A DNA stretch of 40,867 nt from a phage, in sequence record PQ821741.1. The stretch is one strand, 5' to 3'. How positions within the stretch are numbered: position 1 is the first letter of the stretch; each line of letters starts with the position of its first letter. The notes under the pieces were generated by a model that was given only the letters and a program-made list of their open reading frames with translations, did not search any database and was not told the origin of the DNA. This document shows, in pieces, positions 1,369-40,867 of the stretch. The position numbers were made by a program, and so were the translations under genes.

Positions 1369-1737
1369 ATGGCTATGTCAAACATGACTTACAACAACGT
1401 TTTCGACCACGCTTACGAAATGCTGAAAGAAAACATCCGTTATGATGACATCCGCGACACTGATGACCTGCACGATGCTGTTCATATGGCTGCCGATAGC
1501 GCCGTTCCGCACTATTACAGTGACGTTTTCAGCGTAATGGCGAGCGAGGGCATTGACCTTGAGTTCGAAGACTCTGGCCTGATGCCGGACACCAAGGACG
1601 TAATCCGTATCCTGCAAGCTCGCATCTATGAGCAACTCACGATTGACCTCTGGGAAGACGCTGAGGACTTGCTGAACGAGTACCTTGAGGAAGTCGAAGA
1701 AGAGGAAGAGGAAGACTACGCAGAGGATGAAGAGTAA
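1369..1737 (+). CDS. 0.3: Ocr, DNA-mimic anti-restriction protein (gene 0.3)
   Basis: 122 aa, acidic C-terminus, N-terminus [27 protein letters not shown] as in T7 Ocr. Confidence 0.93.
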
Positions 1738-1877
1738 TGGTTAAATACGGTCTAACAAGAGAAATGCTCCAAACGTACCGCGTGGCTATGGCTTATGGTG
1801 CTTCTTTCGGGTACTGTATGGCACAATTAGCACAGACATACCGAGCACGTAAGGCGATGTACGGTAATAGTAAGTGA
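1737..1877 (+). CDS. 0.4: Gene 0.4-like small early protein (46 aa)
   Basis: ATG overlaps 0.3 stop (TAATG); [12 protein letters not shown]... resembles T7 gp0.4. Confidence 0.6.
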   Translation: MVKYGLTREMLQTYRVAMAYGASFGYCMAQLAQTYRARKAMYGNSK

Positions 1878-1925
1878 TAGGCTCAAGGTCGCTCCATGCG
1901 AGTGGCCTTTATGATTATCATTTAA
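1878..1925 (+). promoter_or_regulatory. RNase III hairpin (ggtcgct...gagtggccttt atgattat motif)
   Basis: T7-type RNase III site motif; second copy at 2288-2335 inside the duplication. Confidence 0.55.
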
Positions 1926-1991
1926 CATGCAATAGGACTAACACCATGAGTAATCTTCTGGTCACCTCCTAGGTCTAGGTGTATGCGCTCT

Positions 1992-2147
1992 ATGCCGGAC
2001 ACCAAGGACGTAATCCGTATCCTGCAAGCTCGCATCTATGAGCAACTCACGATTGACCTCTGGGAAGACGCTGAGGACTTGCTGAACGAGTACCTTGAGG
2101 AAGTCGAAGAAGAGGAAGAGGAAGACTACGCAGAGGATGAAGAGTAA
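1992..2147 (+). pseudogene. Ocr C-terminal fragment ORF created by the duplication (51 aa from internal Met)
   Basis: Identical to 3' 156 nt of gene 0.3; no convincing RBS. Confidence 0.4.
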
Positions 2148-2287
2148 TGGTTAAATACGGTCTAACAAGAGAAATGCTCCAAACGTACCGCGTGGCTATG
2201 GCTTATGGTGCTTCTTTCGGGTACTGTATGGCACAATTAGCACAGACATACCGAGCACGTAAGGCGATGTACGGTAATAGTAAGTGA
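2147..2287 (+). CDS. 0.4: Second identical copy of gene 0.4-like ORF
   Basis: Exact copy of 1737-1877 within the duplicated unit. Confidence 0.5.
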   Translation: MVKYGLTREMLQTYRVAMAYGASFGYCMAQLAQTYRARKAMYGNSK

Positions 2288-2355
2288 TAGGCTCAAGGTC
2301 GCTCCATGCGAGTGGCCTTTATGATTATCATTTAACATGCAATAGGACTAACACC

Positions 2356-2556
2356 ATGAGTAAACTTCTGGCAACCTCCAAAATCCAAGGCCAATGCACT
2401 GTAACGCTGCGTGAGTACTATCACGGGTCAATGGGATGCACCTATGTTGTGCGCTATGGCAAACAGGTCACACATTGGGTAAACCTGATTTTAGCGCAAG
2501 AGGAGTATCAAGCCTGTGTGATACACCAAGCAACATGTGCAGGTTGGAACGATTGA
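2356..2556 (+). CDS. Hypothetical early protein (66 aa)
   Basis: ATG after RNase III site; ORF MSKLLATSKIQGQC...; no T7 counterpart recognised. Confidence 0.5.
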   Translation: MSKLLATSKIQGQCTVTLREYYHGSMGCTYVVRYGKQVTHWVNLILAQEEYQACVIHQATCAGWND

Positions 2557-2949: not shown

Positions 2950-4029
2950 ATGAACATTACCGACATCATGAACGCTATCGACGCAATCAAAGCACTTCCA
3001 ATCTGTGAACTTGACAAGCGTCAAGGTATGCTTATCGACTTACTGGTCGAGATGGTCAACAGCGAAACGTGTGATGGCGAGATAACCGAACTGAATCAGG
3101 CACTTGAGCATCAAGATTGGTGGACTACCTTGAAGTGTCTCACGGCTGACGCTGGGTTCAAGATGCTTGGTAATGGTCACTTCTCGGCTGCTTATAGTCA
3201 CCCGCTGCTGCCCAACAGAGTGATTAAGGTGGGCTTTAAGAAAGAGGATTCAGGCGCAGCCTATACCGCATTCTGCCGCATGTATCAGGGCCGTGCCGGT
3301 ATCCCTAACGTCTACGATGTGCAGCGCCACGCTGGATGCTATACGGTGGTACTCGATGCACTGAATGATTGCGAGCGTTTCAACAATGATGAACATTATA
3401 AATACGCTGAGATTGCAAGCGACATCATTGACTACAAATCAGATGCGCACGATGGGCTAACTGGATGGGATGGCGAGTTCGTCGAGACTTGTAAGCTAAT
3501 CCGCAAGTTCTTTGAGGGCATCGCTTCGTTCGACATGCACAGCGGGAACATCATGTTCAGTGACGATGATGTACCATACATTACCGACCCGGTATCATTC
3601 TCGCAGAAGAAAGATGGTGGCGCATTCAGCATTGACCCTGAGGAACTCATCAAGGAAGTCGAGGAGGTCGCACACCAGCGAGCAATCGACCGCGCTAAGG
3701 AACGTAAGGCACGTCATGTGGGTCGAGTGGAGGCACGTAAAGTAAAGCGCCGTAACCGTAAGGCACGTAAAGCACACCAAGAGAAGCACAAGCGAATGGT
3801 TGCTGCGTGGCGCATGGCTGAGCGTCAGGAACGACGCAACCACGAGGTAGCTGTAGATGTACTGGGAAGGACCAATAACGCTATGCTCTGGGTCAACATG
3901 CTCGCTATGGACTTTAAGGCTCTTGAGGAACGAATTGCGGCGAACTGGTTTCAAGCTGACCGGATGACTATCGCTAACGGTCTTCCGCTCAACATCGACA
4001 AGCAACTTGACGCAATGCTAATGGGCTGA
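2950..4029 (+). CDS. 0.7: Gene 0.7 serine/threonine protein kinase and host shut-off protein
   Basis: 359 aa from [23 protein letters not shown], matches T7 gp0.7; an in-frame upstream 0.6-like reading (from 2773) has no intervening stop. Confidence 0.88.
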
Positions 4030-7362: not shown

Positions 7363-7800
7363 ATGAGAATACATTTTGACATTATGAGTCCATCCTTTCT
7401 CTCATGGGACAATGGTCGCCCAGTAGGAGCCTCTATTCGTAATGGCTATAAGAGGGTTAGATGTGGTGGTAAATGGTTAAATCATCACGTCCTAATCTGG
7501 GAACATTTTAACGGCCCAATCCCTGAGGGAATGGAGATAGACCACATTGACCGTAACAGAGGTAATAACGCACCAAGTAACCTGCGTCTTGTGACTCGCT
7601 CTCAAAATAGCAGAAACAAGTCTACACATAAGAACAACAAGTCTGGAATAAAGGGAGTGTACTGGCACAAACATAGAGAATACTGGTATGGTCAGTGTAA
7701 GAAAAATGGTCAAACATTCAGAACATCCTGCTGCCACACAAAGGAACAGGCGGCTTTACTACTTACTAAACTTAGAGAGGAAATAGGTTATGCAGATTAA
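7363..7800 (+). CDS. HNH homing endonuclease (HNH nuclease motif plus AP2-like DNA-binding region)
   Basis: HHVLIWEHFNGPIPEGMEIDHIDRNRGNNAPSNLRLVTRSQNSRN and GIKGVYWHKHREYWYGQ motifs; overlaps ligase start by 11 nt; not in T7 at this locus. Confidence 0.8.
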   Translation: MRIHFDIMSPSFLSWDNGRPVGASIRNGYKRVRCGGKWLNHHVLIWEHFNGPIPEGMEIDHIDRNRGNNAPSNLRLVTRSQNSRNKSTHKNNKSGIKGVYWHKHREYWYGQCKKNGQTFRTSCCHTKEQAALLLTKLREEIGYAD

Positions 7801-8863
7801 AACAATGCCATTTAAAGCTGTGTCTTTCGTAGAGTCTGCCATTAAGAAAGCTCTGGACAACGCTGGGTATCTTATAGCCGACATCAAGTACGATGGTGTA
7901 CGCGGGAACATCTGCGTAGACAATACCGCTAACAGTTGCTGGCTCTCTCGTGTATCAAAAACGATTCCGGCGCTTTCTTACCTTAATGGGTTCGATACAC
8001 GTTGGCAGCGTCTACTAAAGGATGACCGTTGCTTCTACCCTGATGGCTTCATGCTGGATTGCGAACTTATGGTCAAGGGAGTGGACTTCAATACTGGCTC
8101 CGGCCTTCTGCGGACCAAGTGGCTCAACAAGAAGAACATGCAATTCGATATTGGCGGCCCATATGAATCGTGGGACGCGAGCATGAAGGGACTTCCTTTC
8201 GGCCTTGACCCGAACTTACTAACAGTCAAGCTGTACGCCATCCTTCCGCTGCACATCGTGGAGTCTGGAGAAGACTGTGACGTTATGACGTTGCTAATGC
8301 AGGAACACGTTAAGAACATGCTGCCTCTGCTACAGGAATACTTCCCTGAAATCGAATGGCAAGCGGCTGAGTCTTACGAGGTCTACGACATGGTTGAACT
8401 ACAGCAACTGTACGAGAAGAAGCGTGAAGAAGGTCATGAGGGTCTCATTGTGAAAGACCCGATGTGTATCTATAAGCGCGGCAAGAAGTCCGGCTGGTGG
8501 AAGATGAAGCCAGAGAATGAGGCCGATGGTGTCGTTGTGGGACTCAACTGGGGAACTCCCGGTCTTGCCAACGAGGGAAAGGTGATTGGCTTCGAGGTTC
8601 TCCTTGAGTCTGGTCGAGTGGTATCCGCCAACAACATCTCTCAGGCACTTATGGAGGAGTTCACTAAGACTGTAGCTGAGGCAAGCGGTTACACACTAAC
8701 AGGTGGACCCGTAGTAATTCAAGATGGTCAACCAAAGGTCAACCCTTACGAGGGCTGGGCGTGCCAGATTAGCTACATGGAGGAAACCCCAGACGGCTCT
8801 CTGCGTCACCCATCGTTCGTAATGTTCCGTGGCACCGAGGACAACCCTCAAGAGAAAATGTAA
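7790..8863 (+). CDS. 1.3: ATP-dependent DNA ligase
   Basis: 357 aa; KYDGVRG adenylation motif; C-terminus ...DGSLRHPSFVMFRGTEDNPQEKM as T7 ligase. Confidence 0.95.
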   Translation: MQIKTMPFKAVSFVESAIKKALDNAGYLIADIKYDGVRGNICVDNTANSCWLSRVSKTIPALSYLNGFDTRWQRLLKDDRCFYPDGFMLDCELMVKGVDFNTGSGLLRTKWLNKKNMQFDIGGPYESWDASMKGLPFGLDPNLLTVKLYAILPLHIVESGEDCDVMTLLMQEHVKNMLPLLQEYFPEIEWQAAESYEVYDMVELQQLYEKKREEGHEGLIVKDPMCIYKRGKKSGWWKMKPENEADGVVVGLNWGTPGLANEGKVIGFEVLLESGRVVSANNISQALMEEFTKTVAEASGYTLTGGPVVIQDGQPKVNPYEGWACQISYMEETPDGSLRHPSFVMFRGTEDNPQEKM

Positions 8864-8865
8864 AC

Positions 8866-8900
8866 ACACTGGCTCACCTTAGGGTGGGCCTTTCTGCGTT
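8866..8900 (+). terminator. Early terminator TE (rho-independent)
   Basis: ggctcacc-ttag-ggtgggcc hairpin followed by tttctgcgttt. Confidence 0.85.
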
Positions 8901-8923
8901 TAATACGACTCACTAAAGGAGGT
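8901..8923 (+). promoter_or_regulatory. T7 promoter phi1.5
   Basis: taatacgactcactaaaggaggt. Confidence 0.85.
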
Positions 8924-8930
8924 ACACACC

Positions 8931-9077
8931 ATGATGTACTTAATACCATTATTCATCCCTTACGAGGGCTGGGCGTGCCAGATTAGCTACATGGAGGAAA
9001 CCCCAGACGGCTCTCTGCGTCACCCATCGTTCGTAATGTTCCGTGGCACCGAGGACAACCCTCAAGAGAAAATGTAA
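8931..9077 (+). pseudogene. Chimeric ORF from the duplication: 9 N-terminal codons of the small gene fused in frame to the last 39 codons of ligase
   Basis: MMYLIPLFI + PYEGWACQISYMEETPDGSLRHPSFVMFRGTEDNPQEKM; has the native RBS ggagg. Confidence 0.6.
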
Positions 9078-9079
9078 AC

Positions 9080-9114
9080 ACACTGGCTCACCTTAGGGTG
9101 GGCCTTTCTGCGTT
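9080..9114 (+). terminator. Second copy of TE terminator (in duplication)
   Basis: Identical to 8866-8900. Confidence 0.8.
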
Positions 9115-9137
9115 TAATACGACTCACTAAAGGAGGT
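9115..9137 (+). promoter_or_regulatory. Second copy of phi1.5 promoter (in duplication)
   Basis: Identical to 8901-8923. Confidence 0.8.
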
Positions 9138-9144
9138 ACACACC

Positions 9145-9234
9145 ATGATGTACTTAATACCATTATTCATCGTCATCCTAGGATGCCTTGCGCTCACCTG
9201 TAGCGACGACGATATGCCAGATGGTCACGCTTAA
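9145..9234 (+). CDS. Small protein, gene 1.4/1.5-like (29 aa)
   Basis: MMYLIPLFIVILGCLALTCSDDDMPDGHA; RBS aggagg. Confidence 0.7.
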   Translation: MMYLIPLFIVILGCLALTCSDDDMPDGHA

Positions 9235-9254
9235 TACGACTCACTAAAGGAGAC
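9232..9254 (+). promoter_or_regulatory. T7 promoter phi1.6
   Basis: taatacgactcactaaaggagac. Confidence 0.85.
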
Positions 9255-9259
9255 ACTAT

Positions 9260-9520
9260 ATGTTCCAACTTCATTACAACAAAAGCATTAAGAGTTTCAC
9301 GGTTCGCCGTGCTGACCGCTCAATCCTATGTGCGAGCGAACGTCGAGCTAAGTTACCTCTTATTGGTGACACAGTTCCTTTGGCACCGAGCGTCCACATC
9401 ATTATCACTCGTGGTGACTTTGAGAAAGCAATAGACAAGAAACGTCCGGTTCTTAGTGTGGCTGTGACCCGCTTCCCGTTCGTCCGTCTGTTACTCAAAC
9501 GTATCAAGGAGGTGTTCTGA
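9260..9520 (+). CDS. 1.6: Gene 1.6 protein
   Basis: 86 aa [21 protein letters not shown]...LLKRIKEVF. Confidence 0.85.

Positions 9521-10043: not shown

Positions 10044-10056
<13 letters not shown>
9520..10056 (+). CDS. 1.7: Gene 1.7 nucleotide kinase
   Basis: 178 aa; TGATG overlap with 1.6; matches T7 gp1.7. Confidence 0.85.
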
Positions 10057-10561
<505 letters not shown>

Positions 10562-15120: not shown

Positions 15121-17352
15121 ATGATCGTTTCTGACATCGAAGCTAACGCCCTCTTAGAGAGCGTCACTAAGTTCCACTGCGGGGTTATCTACGACTACTC
15201 TACCGCTGAGTACGTAAGCTACCGTCCGAGTGACTTCGGTGCGTATCTGGATGCGCTGGAAGCCGAGGTTGCACGAGGCGGTCTTATTGTGTTCCACAAC
15301 GGTCACAAGTATGACGTTCCTGCATTGACAAAACTGGCAAAGCTGCAATTGAACCGAGAGTTCCACATTCCTCGTGAGAACTGTATCGACACCCTTGTGC
15401 TGTCACGCTTGATTCACTCTAACCTCAAGGACACCGACATGGGTCTTCTGCGTTCCGGTAAACTTCCGGGTAAACGCTTTGGGTCTCACGCTTTGGAGGC
15501 GTGGGGTTATCGCTTAGGCGAGATGAAGGGTGAATACAAGGACGACTTTAAGCGTATGCTTGAAGAGCAGGGTGAAGAATACGTTGACGGAATGGAGTGG
15601 TGGAACTTCAACGAAGAGATGATGGCCTATAACGTTCAGGACGTTGTGGTCACTAAGGCTCTCCTTGAGAAATTACTGTCAGACAAGCACTATTTCCCTT
15701 TAGGTTTAGAGCACGTTAATTATGATTCTATAATCTTTTGGAAAGACTCTATCGAAGCTATTGATGTTGAACATAGAGCAGCTTGGTTGTTAGCTAAACA
15801 GGAGCGTAATGGTTTCCCATTTGACGCTAAGGCAATCGAGGAGTTGTACGTAGAGTTAGCTGCTCGCCGCTCTGAGTTGCTCCGCAAATTGACCGAAACG
15901 TTCGGCTCATGGTATCAGCCCAAAGGTGGCACCGAAATGTTCTGCCATCCGAGGACTGGTAAGCCACTGCCCAAATACCCTCGCATTAAGACACCTAAAG
16001 TTGGTGGTATCTTTAAGAAGCCTAAGAACAAGGCACAGCGAGAAGGCCGTGAGCCTTGCGAACTGGATACCCGCGAGTACGTTGCTGGTGCCCCTTACAC
16101 CCCAGTTGAGCATGTAGTGTTTAACCCATCGTCTCGTGACCACATCCAGAAGAAACTCCAAGAGGCTGGATGGGTCCCAACCAAGTACACCGATAAGGGT
16201 GCGCCTGTGGTGGACGATGAGGTACTCGAAGGAGTACGTGTAGATGACCCTGAGAAGCAAGCTGCAATCGACCTCATTAAAGAATACTTGATGATTCAGA
16301 AGCGAATCGGACAGTCTGCTGAGGGAGACAAGGCGTGGCTTCGTTACGTTGCCGATGATGGTAAGATTCACGGCTCTGTAAACCCTAACGGGGCAGTTAC
16401 TGGTCGCGCTACCCATGCTTTCCCCAACCTTGCGCAAATTCCGGGTGTGCGTTCACCTTATGGAGAGCAGTGTCGCGCTGCTTTTGGTGCTGAACATCAC
16501 CTAGACGGTATTACTGGTAAGCCTTGGGTTCAGGCGGGTATCGACGCATCCGGTCTGGAACTACGCTGCTTGGCCCACTTCATGGCTCGCTTTGATAACG
16601 GCGAGTACGCTCACGAGATTCTTAATGGAGACATCCACACTAAGAACCAGATGGCTGCCGACGCATCCGGTCTGGAACTACGCTGCTTGGCCCACTTCAT
16701 GGCTCGCTTTGATAACGGCGAGTACGCTCACGAGATTCTTAATGGAGACATCCACACTAAGAACCAGATGGCTGCCGAATTGCCTACCCGTGATAACGCC
16801 AAGACGTTCATCTATGGGTTCCTCTACGGTGCTGGCGATGAGAAGATTGGGCAGATTGTCGGTGCTGGTAAAGAGCGTGGTAAGGAACTCAAGAAGAAAT
16901 TCCTTGAGAACACCCCTGCGATTGCGGCACTCCGAGAGTCTATCCAACAGACACTTGTTGAGTCCTCTCAGTGGGTAGCTGGCGAACAGCGAGTCAAGTG
17001 GAAACGCCGCTGGATTAAAGGTCTGGATGGTCGCAAGGTACACGTTCGTAGTCCTCACGCTGCCCTGAATACCCTACTGCAATCCGCTGGTGCGCTCATC
17101 TGCAAACTGTGGATTATCAAGACCGAAGAGATGCTCGTAGAGAAAGGCTTGAAGCATGGCTGGGATGGGGACTTTGCGTACATGGCGTGGGTCCACGATG
17201 AAATCCAAGTGGGTTGTCGTACCGAAGAGATTGCTCAGGTGGTCATTGAGACAGCACAAGAAGCGATGCGCTGGGTTGGAGACCACTGGAACTTCCGGTG
17301 TCTTCTGGATACAGAAGGTAAGATGGGTCCTAATTGGGCCGTATGTCACTAA
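15121..17352 (+). CDS. 5: DNA polymerase (family A), carrying an internal 39-aa in-frame tandem duplication
   Basis: 743 aa against 704 in T7; otherwise near-identical to T7 gp5. Confidence 0.95.
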   Translation: MIVSDIEANALLESVTKFHCGVIYDYSTAEYVSYRPSDFGAYLDALEAEVARGGLIVFHNGHKYDVPALTKLAKLQLNREFHIPRENCIDTLVLSRLIHSNLKDTDMGLLRSGKLPGKRFGSHALEAWGYRLGEMKGEYKDDFKRMLEEQGEEYVDGMEWWNFNEEMMAYNVQDVVVTKALLEKLLSDKHYFPLGLEHVNYDSIIFWKDSIEAIDVEHRAAWLLAKQERNGFPFDAKAIEELYVELAARRSELLRKLTETFGSWYQPKGGTEMFCHPRTGKPLPKYPRIKTPKVGGIFKKPKNKAQREGREPCELDTREYVAGAPYTPVEHVVFNPSSRDHIQKKLQEAGWVPTKYTDKGAPVVDDEVLEGVRVDDPEKQAAIDLIKEYLMIQKRIGQSAEGDKAWLRYVADDGKIHGSVNPNGAVTGRATHAFPNLAQIPGVRSPYGEQCRAAFGAEHHLDGITGKPWVQAGIDASGLELRCLAHFMARFDNGEYAHEILNGDIHTKNQMAADASGLELRCLAHFMARFDNGEYAHEILNGDIHTKNQMAAELPTRDNAKTFIYGFLYGAGDEKIGQIVGAGKERGKELKKKFLENTPAIAALRESIQQTLVESSQWVAGEQRVKWKRRWIKGLDGRKVHVRSPHAALNTLLQSAGALICKLWIIKTEEMLVEKGLKHGWDGDFAYMAWVHDEIQVGCRTEEIAQVVIETAQEAMRWVGDHWNFRCLLDTEGKMGPNWAVCH
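16542..16775 (+). repeat. Exact in-frame tandem duplication, 117-bp unit (16542-16658 and 16659-16775)
   Basis: 120 nt identity at offset 117 with cga microhomology; encodes DASGLELRCLAHFMARFDNGEYAHEILNGDIHTKNQMAA twice. Confidence 0.95.
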
Positions 17353-17814
17353 TTCTAAAGGAGAAATTATTATGGCTATGACCAAGAAATTTAAAGTGTC
17401 CTTCGATGTTACCGCTAAGATGCCATCTGACGTTCAGGCAATCTTAGAGAAAGACATGCTACACCTGTGTAAGCAGGTTGGCTCCGGTGCTATCGTGCCA
17501 GATGGTAAACAGAAGGAAATGATTGTACAGTTCCTGACATATGGTTGGAGACCACTGGAACTTCCGGTGTCTTCTGGATACAGAAGGTAAGATGGGTCCT
17601 AATTGGGCCGTATGTCACTAATTCTAAAGGAGAAATTATTATGGCTATGACCAAGAAATTTAAAGTGTCCTTCGATGTTACCGCTAAGATGCCATCTGAC
17701 GTTCAGGCAATCTTAGAGAAAGACATGCTACACCTGTGTAAGCAGGTTGGCTCCGGTGCTATCGTGCCAGATGGTAAACAGAAGGAAATGATTGTACAGT
17801 TCCTGACATATGGT
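17277..17814 (+). repeat. Exact tandem duplication, 269-bp unit (17277-17545 and 17546-17814)
   Basis: 272 nt identity at offset 269 with ggt microhomology; spans gene 5 3' end, intergenic RBS and 5' 56 codons of gene 5.5. Confidence 0.95.
17372..17590 (+). pseudogene. Truncated gene 5.5 copy fused out of frame to a duplicated gene 5 tail (72 aa)
   Basis: First 56 codons identical to gene 5.5, then frame-shifted tail WRPLELPVSSGYRR*. Confidence 0.7.
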
Positions 17815-17940
17815 ATGGAAGGTGTGATGACGTTCGTAGTGCGTACAGCGTTTCGTGAGGCCATCAAGGACATGCACGAAGAGTATGCCGATAAGGACTC
17901 CTTCAAACTATCTCCTGCAACAGTACGGGAGGTGTTCTAA
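17641..17940 (+). CDS. 5.5: Gp5.5 (H-NS-binding protein)
   Basis: 99 aa MAMTKKFKVSFDVTAKM...SPATVREVF. Confidence 0.9.
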   Translation: MAMTKKFKVSFDVTAKMPSDVQAILEKDMLHLCKQVGSGAIVPDGKQKEMIVQFLTYGMEGVMTFVVRTAFREAIKDMHEEYADKDSFKLSPATVREVF

Positions 17941-35052: not shown

Positions 35053-35736
35053 ATGGCTAACGTAATTAAAACAGTTTTGACTTACCCGTTAGATGGCTCC
35101 ACTCGTGATTTTAATATCCCGTTTGAGTATCTAGCCCGTAAGTTCGTAGTGGTAACTCTTATTGGTGTAGACCGCAAGGTCCTTACGATTAATACAGACT
35201 ACCGTTTTGCTACTCGCACTACCATCTCATTAACCAAGGCTTGGGGTCCAGCGGATGGATATACTACCATCGAGTTGCGCCGAGTAACCTCAACTACCGA
35301 CCGATTGGTTGACTTTACAGATGGTTCAATCCTCCGTGCATATGACCTTAACGTGGCTCAGATTCAGACTATGCATGTGGCAGAAGAGGCACGTGACTTA
35401 ACTGCGGATACAATCGGTGTCAATAGTGACGGTCACTTGGATGCCCGTGGTCGTCGAATTGTGAACCTAGCGAACGCTGTAGATGATTATGATGCCATCA
35501 ACCTACGTCAGGTTAAGCTGTGGAACAATAGTGCGTATCAATCAGCCGTGAACGCGAAGACCTCTGAGACGAACGCTAAGACCTCTGAGACAAACGCCTT
35601 AACATACCGCAATTCTGCTGCTGCTAGTGCCACCGCTGCAAGCACTTCTGAGACGAACGCGAAGACCTCTGAGACGAACGCGAAGACCTCTGAGACGAAC
35701 GCGAAGACCTCTGAGATTACTGCGAAGTTCCTATAA
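35053..35736 (+). pseudogene. 17: Tail fibre gene 17, N-terminal part, ending at premature TAA
   Basis: MANVIKTVLTY...FNIPFEYLARKFVVVTLIGVDRKVLT... matches T7/T3 gp17 N-terminus; frame ends ...TSEITAKFL* at 35734-36. Confidence 0.85.
35556..35723 (+). repeat. 21-bp tandem repeats encoding the heptad TSETNAK (2 units, 42-bp spacer, 4 units)
   Basis: gaagacctctgagacgaacgc repeated; two adjacent units are nucleotide-identical. Confidence 0.85.
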
Positions 35737-35868
35737 GGATGCTGCTGCTTCAAGTGCCACTGCTTCTGCTGCTAGTGCAGCTACCTGTAAGGCAGTTGCT
35801 ATAAGGATGCTGCTGCTTCAAGTGCCACTGCTTCTGCTGCTAGTGCAGCTACCTCTAAGGCAGAGGCC
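35733..35868 (+). repeat. Imperfect 68-bp tandem repeat inside gene 17 (35733-35800 and 35801-35868)
   Basis: First ~55 nt identical, 3' ends differ; copy 1 is +1 relative to the gene frame and carries TAA/TAG/TAA stops. Confidence 0.85.
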
Positions 35869-36489
35869 GACCGCGCGGAGCTACGTGCAAACCAAGCAGG
35901 TGGAGCTAGGGTTATAAACGGAATCTATCCAGATTCTAGTGGAAGCGTAACACTCACTACTGATGACATCAAAGACCCATCTGGTGTTACCATAATGATG
36001 GCTGTTCGATCTATGATTGACGCTATCTTTCCTGTCGGTATTCGCATGGATTGGCCTCTCGCTTCCCTTCCCGATAATCCAACACTTGGTGTTAAGTTTC
36101 TTAGGTTGGATGGGTCTAGCTTTGATAAAACACAGTACCCCAAGCTGGCTGCCATATATCCGTCTGGAGTTTTGCCAGATTTACGTGGTGAGTTTATTCG
36201 TGGCTGGGATGACGGGCGCGGGGTTGATGGTGGGCGCGTTGTTTTAACTGGTCAGAGCCAATCAGTACAGCAGCATACTCATGGTCTAGCGATGGCATAC
36301 AGTTCAGAGAGCGGTTACAAGGACAAGCTAGGCGCTGGCCCTAACTCTGACATGATTCCGATTAAAGATATGATTAAAGTAACCACTTTTACTGGTTCTG
36401 GTGAGTATTACTTAAAGGCGAATGATTCAACAGGTGTTGAAACTCGCCCGCGCAACGTCGCATTTAACTTCATCGTGAGGGCCGCATAA
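35803..36489 (+). pseudogene. 17: Tail fibre gene 17, C-terminal part with tip 1 (in frame with N-terminal part but separated by stops)
   Basis: KDAAASSATASAASAATSKAEADRAE...GEFIRGWDDGRGVDGGR...TRPRNVAFNFIVRAA*; no own start or RBS. Confidence 0.8.
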
Positions 36490-36841
36490 TGACACAGGCA
36501 AAATTAAACAGTGAATTTATTGCCACAGTAGCGGGTGATATGAAGATTCTAGTGGAAGCGTAACACTCACTACTGATGACATCAAAGACCCATCTGGTGT
36601 TACCATAATGATGGCTGTTCGATCTATGATTGACGCTATCTTTCCTGTCGGTATTCGCATGGATTGGCCTCTCGCTTCCCTTCCCGATAATCCAACACTT
36701 GGTGTTAAGTTTCTTAGGTTGGATGGGTCTAGCTTTGATAAAACACAGTACCCCAAGCTGGCTGCCATATATCCGTCTGGAGTTTTGCCAGATTTACGTG
36801 GTGAGTTTATTCGTGGCTGGGATGACGGGCGCGGGGTTGAT
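35931..36841 (+). repeat. 298-bp exact direct repeat (35931-36228 and 36544-36841), period 613 bp
   Basis: Base-by-base identical; both copies encode ...DSSGSVTLTTDDIKDPSGVTIMMAVRSMIDAIFPVGIRMDW...GEFIRGWDDGRGVD. Confidence 0.95.
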
Positions 36842-37123
36842 AGAGGGCGCGGATTAATGAGTGCTCAGGGCGATGCCATTCGGAATATTACTGGTCGCAT
36901 TAGGGGCGGGTCATCTGGGTCTTATGGTAAAATCTTCCTGGATGAATCTAGTGGTGCTTTTTTCCCTTCCGGTGAGGATGGAGAACAGTTCCATCCTTCA
37001 TCGACACCTCTACCTTATGGGAGATACAACACTGTAGATTTTGATGCTAGCAGGGTAGTCCCAACTGCCGACGAAAACCGCCCAAGAAACGTTGCGTGGA
37101 ATATGATTGTGAGGGCATCGTAA
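36539..37123 (+). other. Promoterless, startless second tail-fibre C-terminal cassette (tip 2)
   Basis: Reading frame opens after TGA at 36536-38; shared 298-bp stem then divergent tip ...NRPRNVAWNMIVRAS*; no RBS; first ATG is the internal Met-Met at 36608. Confidence 0.75.
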
Positions 37124-40354: not shown

Positions 40355-40418
40355 GGTCTTCCTGACCGACTGATGGCTCACCGAGGGATTCAGCGGTATG
40401 ATTGCATCACACCACTTC

Positions 40419-40867
40419 ATCCCTATAGAGTCAAGTCCTAAGGTATACCCATAAAGAGCCTCTAATGGTCTATCCTAAGGTATATACCTAAAGATAGGCC
40501 ATCCTATCAGTGTCACCTAAAGAGGGTCTTAGAGATGGCCTAGGGAGTTCCTAGAGGGTCCTTTAAAATATACCATAAAAATCTGAGTGACTATCTCACA
40601 GTGTACGGACCTAAAGTTCCCCCATAGGGGTACCTAAAGCCCAGCCAATCACCTAAAGTCAACCTTCGGTTGACCTTGAGGGTCCCTAAGGGTTAGGGTT
40701 GACCCTTTGAGTGGGCCTTGGGTGTTACCTTGAGTGTCTCTCTGTGTCCCTATCTGTTACAGCCTCCTAAAGTATCCTCCTAAAGTATCCTCCTAAAGTC
40801 ACCTCCTAAAGTCATTCCTACCGTCTACAACCTAAAGACTACACCTAAAGACCCATCAAGTCAACGC
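40419..40867. repeat. Right copy of 449-bp direct repeat (wrap-around into the genome left end)
   Basis: Identical to 32-480 except one mismatch. Confidence 0.95.
40594..40751 (+). repeat. T7-type terminal repeat, right copy
   Basis: Identical to 207-364. Confidence 0.8.

Follow-up and report, generated by a model that had tools for sequence, protein, structure and literature searches.

Analyzing a 40,867-nucleotide stretch of phage DNA (hereafter the window), a complete T7-like genome of the genus Teseptimavirus, we found a 214-bp tandem duplication across the boundary between the DNA ligase gene and gene 1.5, which we interpret, with moderate confidence, as a very young, unselected, microhomology-mediated event whose junction is real, was not in the majority of molecules, and was included at the level of the assembly. 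Within this explanation, what we infer is that the second copy arose by template switching and that its junction entered at the level of the assembly. It is the number of duplications in this genome, and not the 214-bp one, that is the unusual part, and because at least one of six such events is lethal as written, the sequence, taken as given, very probably does not represent the clonal majority genome of any viable phage.

An exact 214-bp tandem duplication spans the ligase and gene 1.5 boundary

Letter for letter, positions 8743–8957 equal positions 8957–9171 (215 nt at an offset of 214, from an exact scan of the whole window), and the two resulting 214-bp copies (8743–8956 and 8957–9170, both on the plus strand) are identical and lie head-to-tail without a spacer, meeting at a novel junction at 8956/8957. 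A 215-nt exact repeat within 41 kb cannot be chance. The original prediction of a 214-bp tandem duplication with 215 nt of identity was confirmed by direct reading, by the exact scan, by a repeat search (8739–8952 equal to 8953–9166) and by TRF (8739–9171, period 214, 2.0 copies, 99%). Across the wider interval of 8739–8957 the sole mismatch (A at 8742 vs T at 8956) lies outside of the true unit, and between the copies themselves we found no divergence. The unit carries ligase codons 319–357 plus the stop, orthologs of the TE terminator and the phi1.5 promoter, an RBS, and the opening 9 codons of gene 1.5, such that the "last 40 codons" of ligase originally assigned to it are found as 39 residues, starting at codon 319, and a stop. 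Both breakpoints fall inside coding sequences (ligase and gene 1.5), and do not frame the regulatory elements.

Upstream of the junction, the DNA ligase gene (gene 1.3 ortholog; 7790–8863, plus strand) is intact at 357 aa, with its last 39 codons and stop lying in copy 1, and it matches T7 gp1.3 residues 1–359 at 80% (tblastn). The closest ligases among 5.8 billion proteins, which carry PF01068 and PF17879, are only 87–88% identical, and an exact look-up of the ligase protein in public collections returned no match. Downstream, the intact small gene that had been placed at 9145 is present as the 29-aa gene 1.5 (9145–9234, plus strand; 86% to T7 gp1.5), followed by a single-copy phi1.6 promoter ortholog with a T7-RNAP consensus match (9232–9254, plus strand), and then by gene 1.6 (9260–9520, plus strand), which was matched with T7 proteins by tblastn. 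Gene 1.4, which sits between TE and phi1.5 in T7, is missing here and is also missing in several natural relatives, and the compact layout is therefore native.

A TE-type intrinsic terminator occurs 3' of the ligase stop at 8871–8901 (hairpin 8871–8890, tract to 8901) and again, with identical sequence, at 9085–9115, both on the plus strand. Its hairpin, GGCTCACC-TTAG-GGTGGGCC followed by the tract TTTCTGCGTTT, possesses an 8-bp G+C stem with a TTAG loop and folds as RNA at −19.2 kcal/mol (z = −3.96). A generic terminator scan did not call this element, the U-tract of which is interrupted, and it was identified via fold and orthology instead. Window positions 8957–9116 align to T7 7434–7593 (ligase tail plus TE, the latter annotated at 7588) at 93.8%, and a multiple alignment revealed the terminator to be nearly invariant among relatives. 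Fold and alignment together support the earlier identification of the hairpin as the T7 TE ortholog.

Seeing the same arrangement for the promoter, we located the two phi1.5 copies at 8901–8923 (TAATACGACTCACTAAAGGAG at 8901–8921, predicted +1 at 8918) and 9115–9137 (TAATACGACTCACTAAAGGAG at 9115–9135, predicted +1 at 9132), both on the plus strand and with 0 mismatches to the T7-RNAP consensus TAATACGACTCACTAWAGGRR at 8901 and 9115. The window holds 16 T7-RNAP consensus sites against 0 expected by chance. Positions 8901–8957 align to T7 7761–7817 (phi1.5, +1 annotated at 7778) at 96.5%, which, together with the consensus matches, agrees with the promoter just upstream of gene 1.5 being the T7 phi1.5 ortholog, as had been proposed.

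The RBS (AAGGAGGT) stands 7 nt ahead of an ATG at both 8931 and 9145. From the first of these runs a junction ORF of 48 aa (8931–9077, plus strand), present in the ORF list as anticipated, in which gene 1.5 codon 9 is joined in frame to ligase codon 319 behind the gene 1.5 RBS, giving 9 gene 1.5 codons fused to ligase residues 319–357 (product MMYLIPLFI+PYEGW...QEKM). T7 gp1.3 residues 321–359 match positions 8958–9074 at 97% (tblastn), and the exact 48-aa chimera returned no match in a public protein collection. Judging from its residues, the chimera cannot be a ligase, because it holds only ligase residues 319–357, the end of the C-terminal domain, without the adenylation domain or the catalytic lysine.

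Relatives carry a single copy of the duplicated interval

Every relative examined possesses one copy of the interval (360 phage records, 50 IMG/VR loci and 9 complete genomes), and a sensitive search of the 360 phage records (360 places) found no second copy of the ligase-tail/TE segment. Once de-duplicated, the window lines up colinearly, with no gaps and at ~92%, with IMG/VR loci L012, L011, L051 (CICC 80001) and L005, each of which aligns to exactly one copy in the multiple alignment, and the ancestral state is single-copy. Relatives diverge from the window by ~8% within the duplicated interval, yet its two copies are identical to each other, which makes the duplication very recent. Neither the junction 28-mer nor the parental 34-mer found a match in IMG/VR, JGI metagenomes or GTDB genomes, and the duplication was neither conserved nor recurrent among the same 360 records, 50 loci and 9 genomes.

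With TE and phi1.5 intact and identical in both copies, the event might be read as adaptive regulation, where a doubled TE tightens host RNA polymerase termination at the early/middle boundary and a doubled phi1.5 lifts class II transcription of genes 1.5–1.7, selected in the manner of the phi13 duplication in evolved T7. That precedent is T7:LME_2000, in which a 154-bp tandem duplication with promoter phi13 had risen to consensus frequency, at 50% or more, by 2000 generations and was judged likely regulatory (Cecchini et al. 2013, PMC3737178). The likeness is that of a T7-group genome with a short tandem duplication that holds a complete T7-RNAP promoter and thereby sets two promoters in tandem. 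The differences are that the phi13 event is intergenic and arose in an engineered, rearranged genome under strong selection, whereas the event in the window has its breakpoints in two genes, co-duplicates a terminator, creates a fusion ORF, shows no sign of selection, and is accompanied by five more duplications. Native T7 promoter pairs offer a second comparison, as phi1.1A/phi1.1B (75 nt apart) and phi1.5/phi1.6 (117 nt apart) are likewise class II promoters on the same strand, and phi1.5 and phi1.6 in the window share 24/25 nt; unlike the 214-bp pair, which is identical throughout and unique to the window, these native pairs are conserved across the genus, have diverged flanks, and serve separate downstream genes.

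Weighing this, we consider adaptive regulation highly improbable. It would have to accommodate the lack of conservation or recurrence in 360 records, breakpoints placed within two coding sequences so that the regulatory elements are not framed, and five other duplications among which we found no common regulatory content. Furthermore, phi1.6 already lies 117 nt downstream of phi1.5, so that an added promoter would be largely redundant, and T7 RNA polymerase reportedly reads through TE, as established T7 biology has it.

The 214-bp event is one of at least six tandem duplications in the window

The 214-bp repeat had been taken as an isolated feature, a view that did not hold, as it is one of at least six two-copy tandem duplications of the same class spread across the genome, the other five being of 410, 163, 117, 269 and 68 bp. 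Three of these five are exact, namely the 163-bp duplication over the gene 1.7 end, gene 1.8 and the gene 2 RBS (10044–10372, plus strand), the 117-bp duplication in frame inside the DNA polymerase gene 5 (16542–16778, plus strand), and the 269-bp duplication across the gene 5 stop and the gene 5.5 start (17274–17815, plus strand). The imperfect ones are a pair of 388-nt copies at an offset of 410 with 99.2% identity, which carries the 3' part of gene 0.3 (1582–2379, plus strand), and a 68-nt repeat with 2 mismatches inside the tail-fibre gene 17 (35726–35863, plus strand). The window also holds a dispersed repeat of 308 nt (35931–36238 and 36544–36851).

Comparable events are rare in relatives, with one in nine complete genomes (357 kb) and two small ones in fifty 6-kb loci, and at this base rate six events in 41 kb have a Poisson P of order 1e-8 or less. 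None of the duplications in the window was found in any relative examined. A comparable event occurs in Dickeya phage vB_DsoP_JA10 (NC_048052, 7577–7830), the ligase gene of which has 127 bp of its last part exactly duplicated in tandem; the closest relatives of JA10 lack this duplication, and its genome has no other such event. JA10 resembles the window in belonging to the Autographiviridae/Studiervirinae and in carrying, toward the 3' end of ligase, an exact tandem duplication specific to the strain, after which an almost complete ligase remains together with a spare ligase-tail ORF that is annotated there as a second 'DNA ligase' CDS; it differs in that the duplication lies wholly inside the ligase CDS, doubles neither terminator nor promoter, and shows no microhomology, its exact run being just as long as the period. 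Taken together, JA10 and T7:LME_2000 indicate that single strain-specific duplications do reach deposited genomes.

Against this background, the ligase-tail chimera is a generic by-product, since other boundary-spanning events also give RBS-driven junction ORFs (three of the tandem duplications yield one), and the chance of its falling in frame was one in three. Gene boundaries are likewise crossed by the 163-bp and 269-bp events, both of which leave the flanking genes intact. Overall, 4/6 tandem duplications spare every gene and a fifth (gene 5) is in frame. The placement of at least four of six across a gene boundary (P = 0.085) is weakly suggestive of selection filtering, and we used it for neither side of the argument.

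Junction microhomology points to real template-switch or annealing molecules

Among the four exact events, junction microhomology amounts to 3, 3, 1 and 3 nt (ATG, CGA, C and GGT for the events at 10044, 16542, 8743 and 17274, respectively), and at least three of four events with at least 3 nt would be expected with P = 5e-4 under random placement. For the 214-bp event the 1 nt of the original prediction was recovered by the exact scan (C, with flanks TCAaC/TCAtC that match at 4/5 positions), and its chance P is ~0.44; this 1 nt, taken alone, is not significant and counts against the microhomology reading. From the excess over the four junctions we infer real template-switch or strand-annealing molecules behind them, and such molecules would in turn disfavor contig concatenation and arbitrary editing.

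Short junction homology is a known signature of microhomology-mediated tandem duplication (MTD), and at low frequency such junctions are common in viral populations sequenced to great depth (bioRxiv 10.64898/2026.02.28.708716). The 214-bp event is like the MTD class of that work in its two head-to-tail copies, short junction homology, single-copy ancestor and expected reversibility by recombination; it differs in that arms of 4–25 bp were used for calling there and 1–3 nt are found here (for the 214-bp event, an imperfect 4/5), so that it fits the broad class and not the strict criterion. Under such a mechanism, a nascent strand or resected end reading ...TTCATC (gene 1.5 codon 9) would re-pair ~214 nt upstream at ...GTCAAC/C in the ligase gene, and the interval would then be copied again. 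With the interval straddling a gene boundary, the ligase tail, TE, phi1.5, the RBS and 9 gene 1.5 codons would be carried along passively, leaving ligase and gene 1.5 intact, and the extra TE, the extra promoter and the fused 48-aa ORF would be by-products.

Alternatively, the repeat could be purely in silico, with no molecule behind the junction, as from untrimmed overlapping contigs or amplicons or from an edited or generated sequence. Several perfect two-copy repeats together with a 480-nt overlap of the contig ends do resemble untrimmed overlaps, and neither the genome nor, as an exact match, its ligase or the junction turned up in the public collections searched. Even so, we regard this reading as very unlikely, because it predicts chance-level junction homology where 3, 3, 1 and 3 nt are seen (P ~5e-4), and because differences from the nearest natural contigs in portal and capsid are only synonymous, as in a genuine natural genome. 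Untrimmed contig or amplicon overlaps specifically are disfavored by the microhomology excess. Nothing specific was found in the literature on tandem duplications created by assemblers in phage genomes.

The genomic backbone was assessed in the same light. The window shares 91–93% nucleotide identity with Escherichia phages CICC 80001, N30, C5 and T7, and tblastn with T7 proteins recovered the T7 gene order whole, from 0.3 to 19.5. Half of the proteins tested (5/10) match proteins of natural public contigs exactly, and the differences from the nearest natural contigs are synonymous throughout (portal 44/44, capsid 15/15), which argues for high base-level quality. The backbone is that of a genuine natural lineage, and a generated or synthetic backbone was rejected in view of the exact natural proteins and the all-synonymous portal and capsid differences.

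Gene lesions and contig ends suggest an unpolished consensus

One lesion lies in the tail-fibre gene 17, where translation from the ATG at 35053 would run into three in-frame stops within the first 68-nt copy, after which the frame resumes in the second copy and continues to a stop at 36489, such that a full-length tail fibre is not makeable from the sequence as written. No natural full-length gp17 with the same tip was found as a template, the tip matching only myovirus or prophage tail fibres. In gene 5, the 117-bp event doubles DNA polymerase residues D475–A513 (743 aa vs 704 in T7), a segment that in the T7 gp5 structure includes H506 as well as D475, the metal-ligand aspartate of motif A. 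Further along, the left edge of the 308-nt repeat is the exact frame break of a second collar-domain gene. These gene 17, gene 5 and collar-domain lesions share one rearrangement class, and since all other large genes are intact, they are not general sequencing noise.

The ends of the contig add to this picture. The sequence overruns one genome unit (40,387 bp) by 480 nt, positions 32–480 equal 40419–40867 save for one mismatch at position 54, and the opening 33 nt repeat 40388–40420 exactly in inverted orientation. These contig ends look unpolished, as from a concatemer or from circular assembly run-around.

One may instead propose that the duplication is real and fixed in the isolate, carried along as a passenger that is neutral or mildly deleterious, in a genome that is essentially as written. 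This would invoke a burst of microhomology-mediated duplications, arising for example through bottlenecked laboratory passaging or a defect in the replisome or in Okazaki processing, with the tail-fibre lesion put down to an unrelated sequencing problem in low-complexity sequence. The microhomology excess and the perfect two-copy structure are compatible with it, as are the four events that spare all genes and the fifth that is in frame in gene 5; split tail-fibre annotations are found in other deposited genomes, and single fixed events are precedented in JA10 and T7:LME_2000. Genome length is no objection to real events, since an engineered T7 of 41,208 bp exists and a 40,387-bp unit would therefore be packageable. 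Over-length T7 records PP384393–97 were considered as further duplication cases; PP384397 is an engineered mCherry recombinant and is irrelevant beyond packaging at 41.2 kb.

Several observations nonetheless make fixation in the isolate rather unlikely. Six unstable direct repeats of 68–410 bp would have to become fixed together without divergence, while T7-type recombination is said, from the Masker laboratory, to remove long direct repeats efficiently, such repeats being unstable. The gene 17 stops and the duplication of polymerase motif A both speak against viability, and none of the events is common to any relative.

A stronger form of that proposal holds that the genome is viable essentially as written and belongs to a 'duplication mutator' T7-like lineage, in which the doubling of the early/middle boundary through ligase, TE and phi1.5 is truly fixed, a scenario that we consider distinctly unlikely. 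Its cause could conceivably be the phage's own rearranged DNA polymerase, with D475–A513 duplicated, or a defect in Okazaki-fragment processing. The original prediction had implied a distinctive doubling of the early/middle boundary, a significance that the data do not support, as the doubling is absent from relatives, shows no divergence between copies, and is one of at least six events, some of which damage essential genes.

Returning to a real junction of minority standing within a raw assembly, which we prefer, the junctions would come from a T7-like lysate sequenced to great depth, as minority variants, defective genomes or chimeric molecules, and would have been taken up into an unpolished consensus. 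A single viable clone with all events is unlikely given the gene 17, gene 5 and collar lesions, the reported instability of repeats, and the ragged contig ends. Counting against an assembly-level origin are the intact state of the other large genes and the clean natural backbone, the sparing of genes by 4/6 events with a fifth in frame, as expected of survivors of selection, and the occurrence of single strain-specific tandem duplications in T7-group genomes (JA10, T7:LME_2000).

Implications for T7-group phages

Strain-specific tandem duplications are a known mutation class in T7-group phages, and the 214-bp duplication, which leaves all genes intact, represents a further instance with little import at face value. 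Its practical value is that of a quality flag, such that six fresh duplications, tail-fibre stops and ragged ends call for a re-check against the reads before the sequence is used for annotation or comparative work.

If the duplications were real and co-resident, the phage would let duplication bursts in a T7-type replisome be studied in a natural setting, and the locus would offer a ready-made test of how a second TE and a second phi1.5 affect early and middle transcription. Early transcripts of host RNA polymerase would then meet two TE hairpins 214 nt apart, with less read-through predicted, and T7 RNA polymerase, which reads through TE, would have an extra class II start, predicted at ~8918, ahead of both the start in native position (~9132) and phi1.6 (9232), for what would be a marginal gain.

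Repeats in genes 0.3, 1.7-1.8, 5 and 5.5

An exact tandem duplication of 163 bp (10044-10372), with ATG as the microhomology at its junction, runs from the last part of gene 1.7 through most of gene 1.8, includes the ribosome-binding site (RBS) of gene 2, and creates a 63-aa ORF whose RBS is the duplicated one of gene 2. Two 388-nt copies at an offset of 410 and with 99.2% identity (1582-2401) carry the 3'-terminal third of gene 0.3 (ocr), with a third, diverged copy of part of this repeat at 2577-2697; because the units differ over their last 22 nt, the repeat is not a clean tandem duplication. Inside the DNA polymerase gene (gene 5), we found an exact, in-frame tandem duplication of 117 bp (16542-16778) that repeats residues D475-A513 (DASGLELRC...KNQMAA), a segment that includes the motif A catalytic aspartate, and the polymerase ORF is 743 aa long in the window as compared with 704 in T7. 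An exact 269-bp tandem duplication (17274-17815; junction microhomology GGT) takes in the stop codon of gene 5 along with codons 1-57 of gene 5.5, giving rise to a 72-aa truncated gp5.5 fusion; the intact copy of gene 5.5 lies downstream at 17641.

ORFs around the ligase gene and defects in related records

Inserted between gene 1.2 and ligase is a 145-aa ORF of HNH endonuclease type (7363-7800) that shows 50% identity to part of T7 gp3.8 and shares 11 nt with the start of ligase; it probably encodes a homing endonuclease. On the other side of ligase, the gene 1.5 product (MMYLIPLFIVILGCLALTCSDDDMPDGHA; 9145-9234) begins with a hydrophobic segment, after which comes a lipobox-like ILGC, and may be a very small lipoprotein; just its first 9 residues are retained in the 48-aa chimera at the ligase duplication junction.

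Turning to related phages, Dickeya phage JA10 (RefSeq NC_048052, our locus L066) possesses an exact 127-bp tandem duplication at the ligase 3' end (7577-7830; one and the same site as 3399-3652 of our locus L050) that is absent from the closest relatives of JA10. The duplicated region carries two CDS annotated "DNA ligase", and only the last three ligase residues are altered. The tail-fibre gene of phage 64795_ec1 (NC_031114, locus L061, 354-2226) and the ligase gene of CICC 80001 (NC_027387, locus L067, 12057-13078) are each present as two overlapping CDS, probably through frameshift errors, and such defects are thus common in deposited records of this group.

Contig ends and the tail-fibre gene

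The contig is 480 nt longer than one genome unit (40,387 bp), with 1-480 overlapping 40388-40867. An exact inversion (positions 1-33 versus 40388-40420) and a single mismatch (54 G versus 40441 A) are, together with this overrun, signs of an unpolished assembly end.

In tail-fibre gene 17 (35053-36489), three in-frame stops are introduced by a tandem repeat of 68 nt (35726-35863; 2 mismatches). The frame is picked up again in the second copy, and the gene is thus broken as written. Directly upstream are 21-nt arrays coding for SETNAKT (35550-35716). A 308-nt direct repeat (35931-36238 and 36544-36851; 99.4%, copies 305 nt apart) appears to be a product of ectopic copying or gene conversion. 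A downstream ORF (MTQAKLNSEFIATVAGDMK...) goes out of frame exactly where the second copy starts, and the right edge of the repeat grades into the natural paralogy of two collar-domain proteins.

The fibre tip (35965-36489), a phage tail collar domain (PF07484), shares 66-79% identity with the fibres of E. coli, Salmonella and Yersinia prophages, which have baseplate neighbourhoods of myovirus type, and has no match among T7-group fibres. This pattern suggests that the receptor-binding module was gained horizontally.
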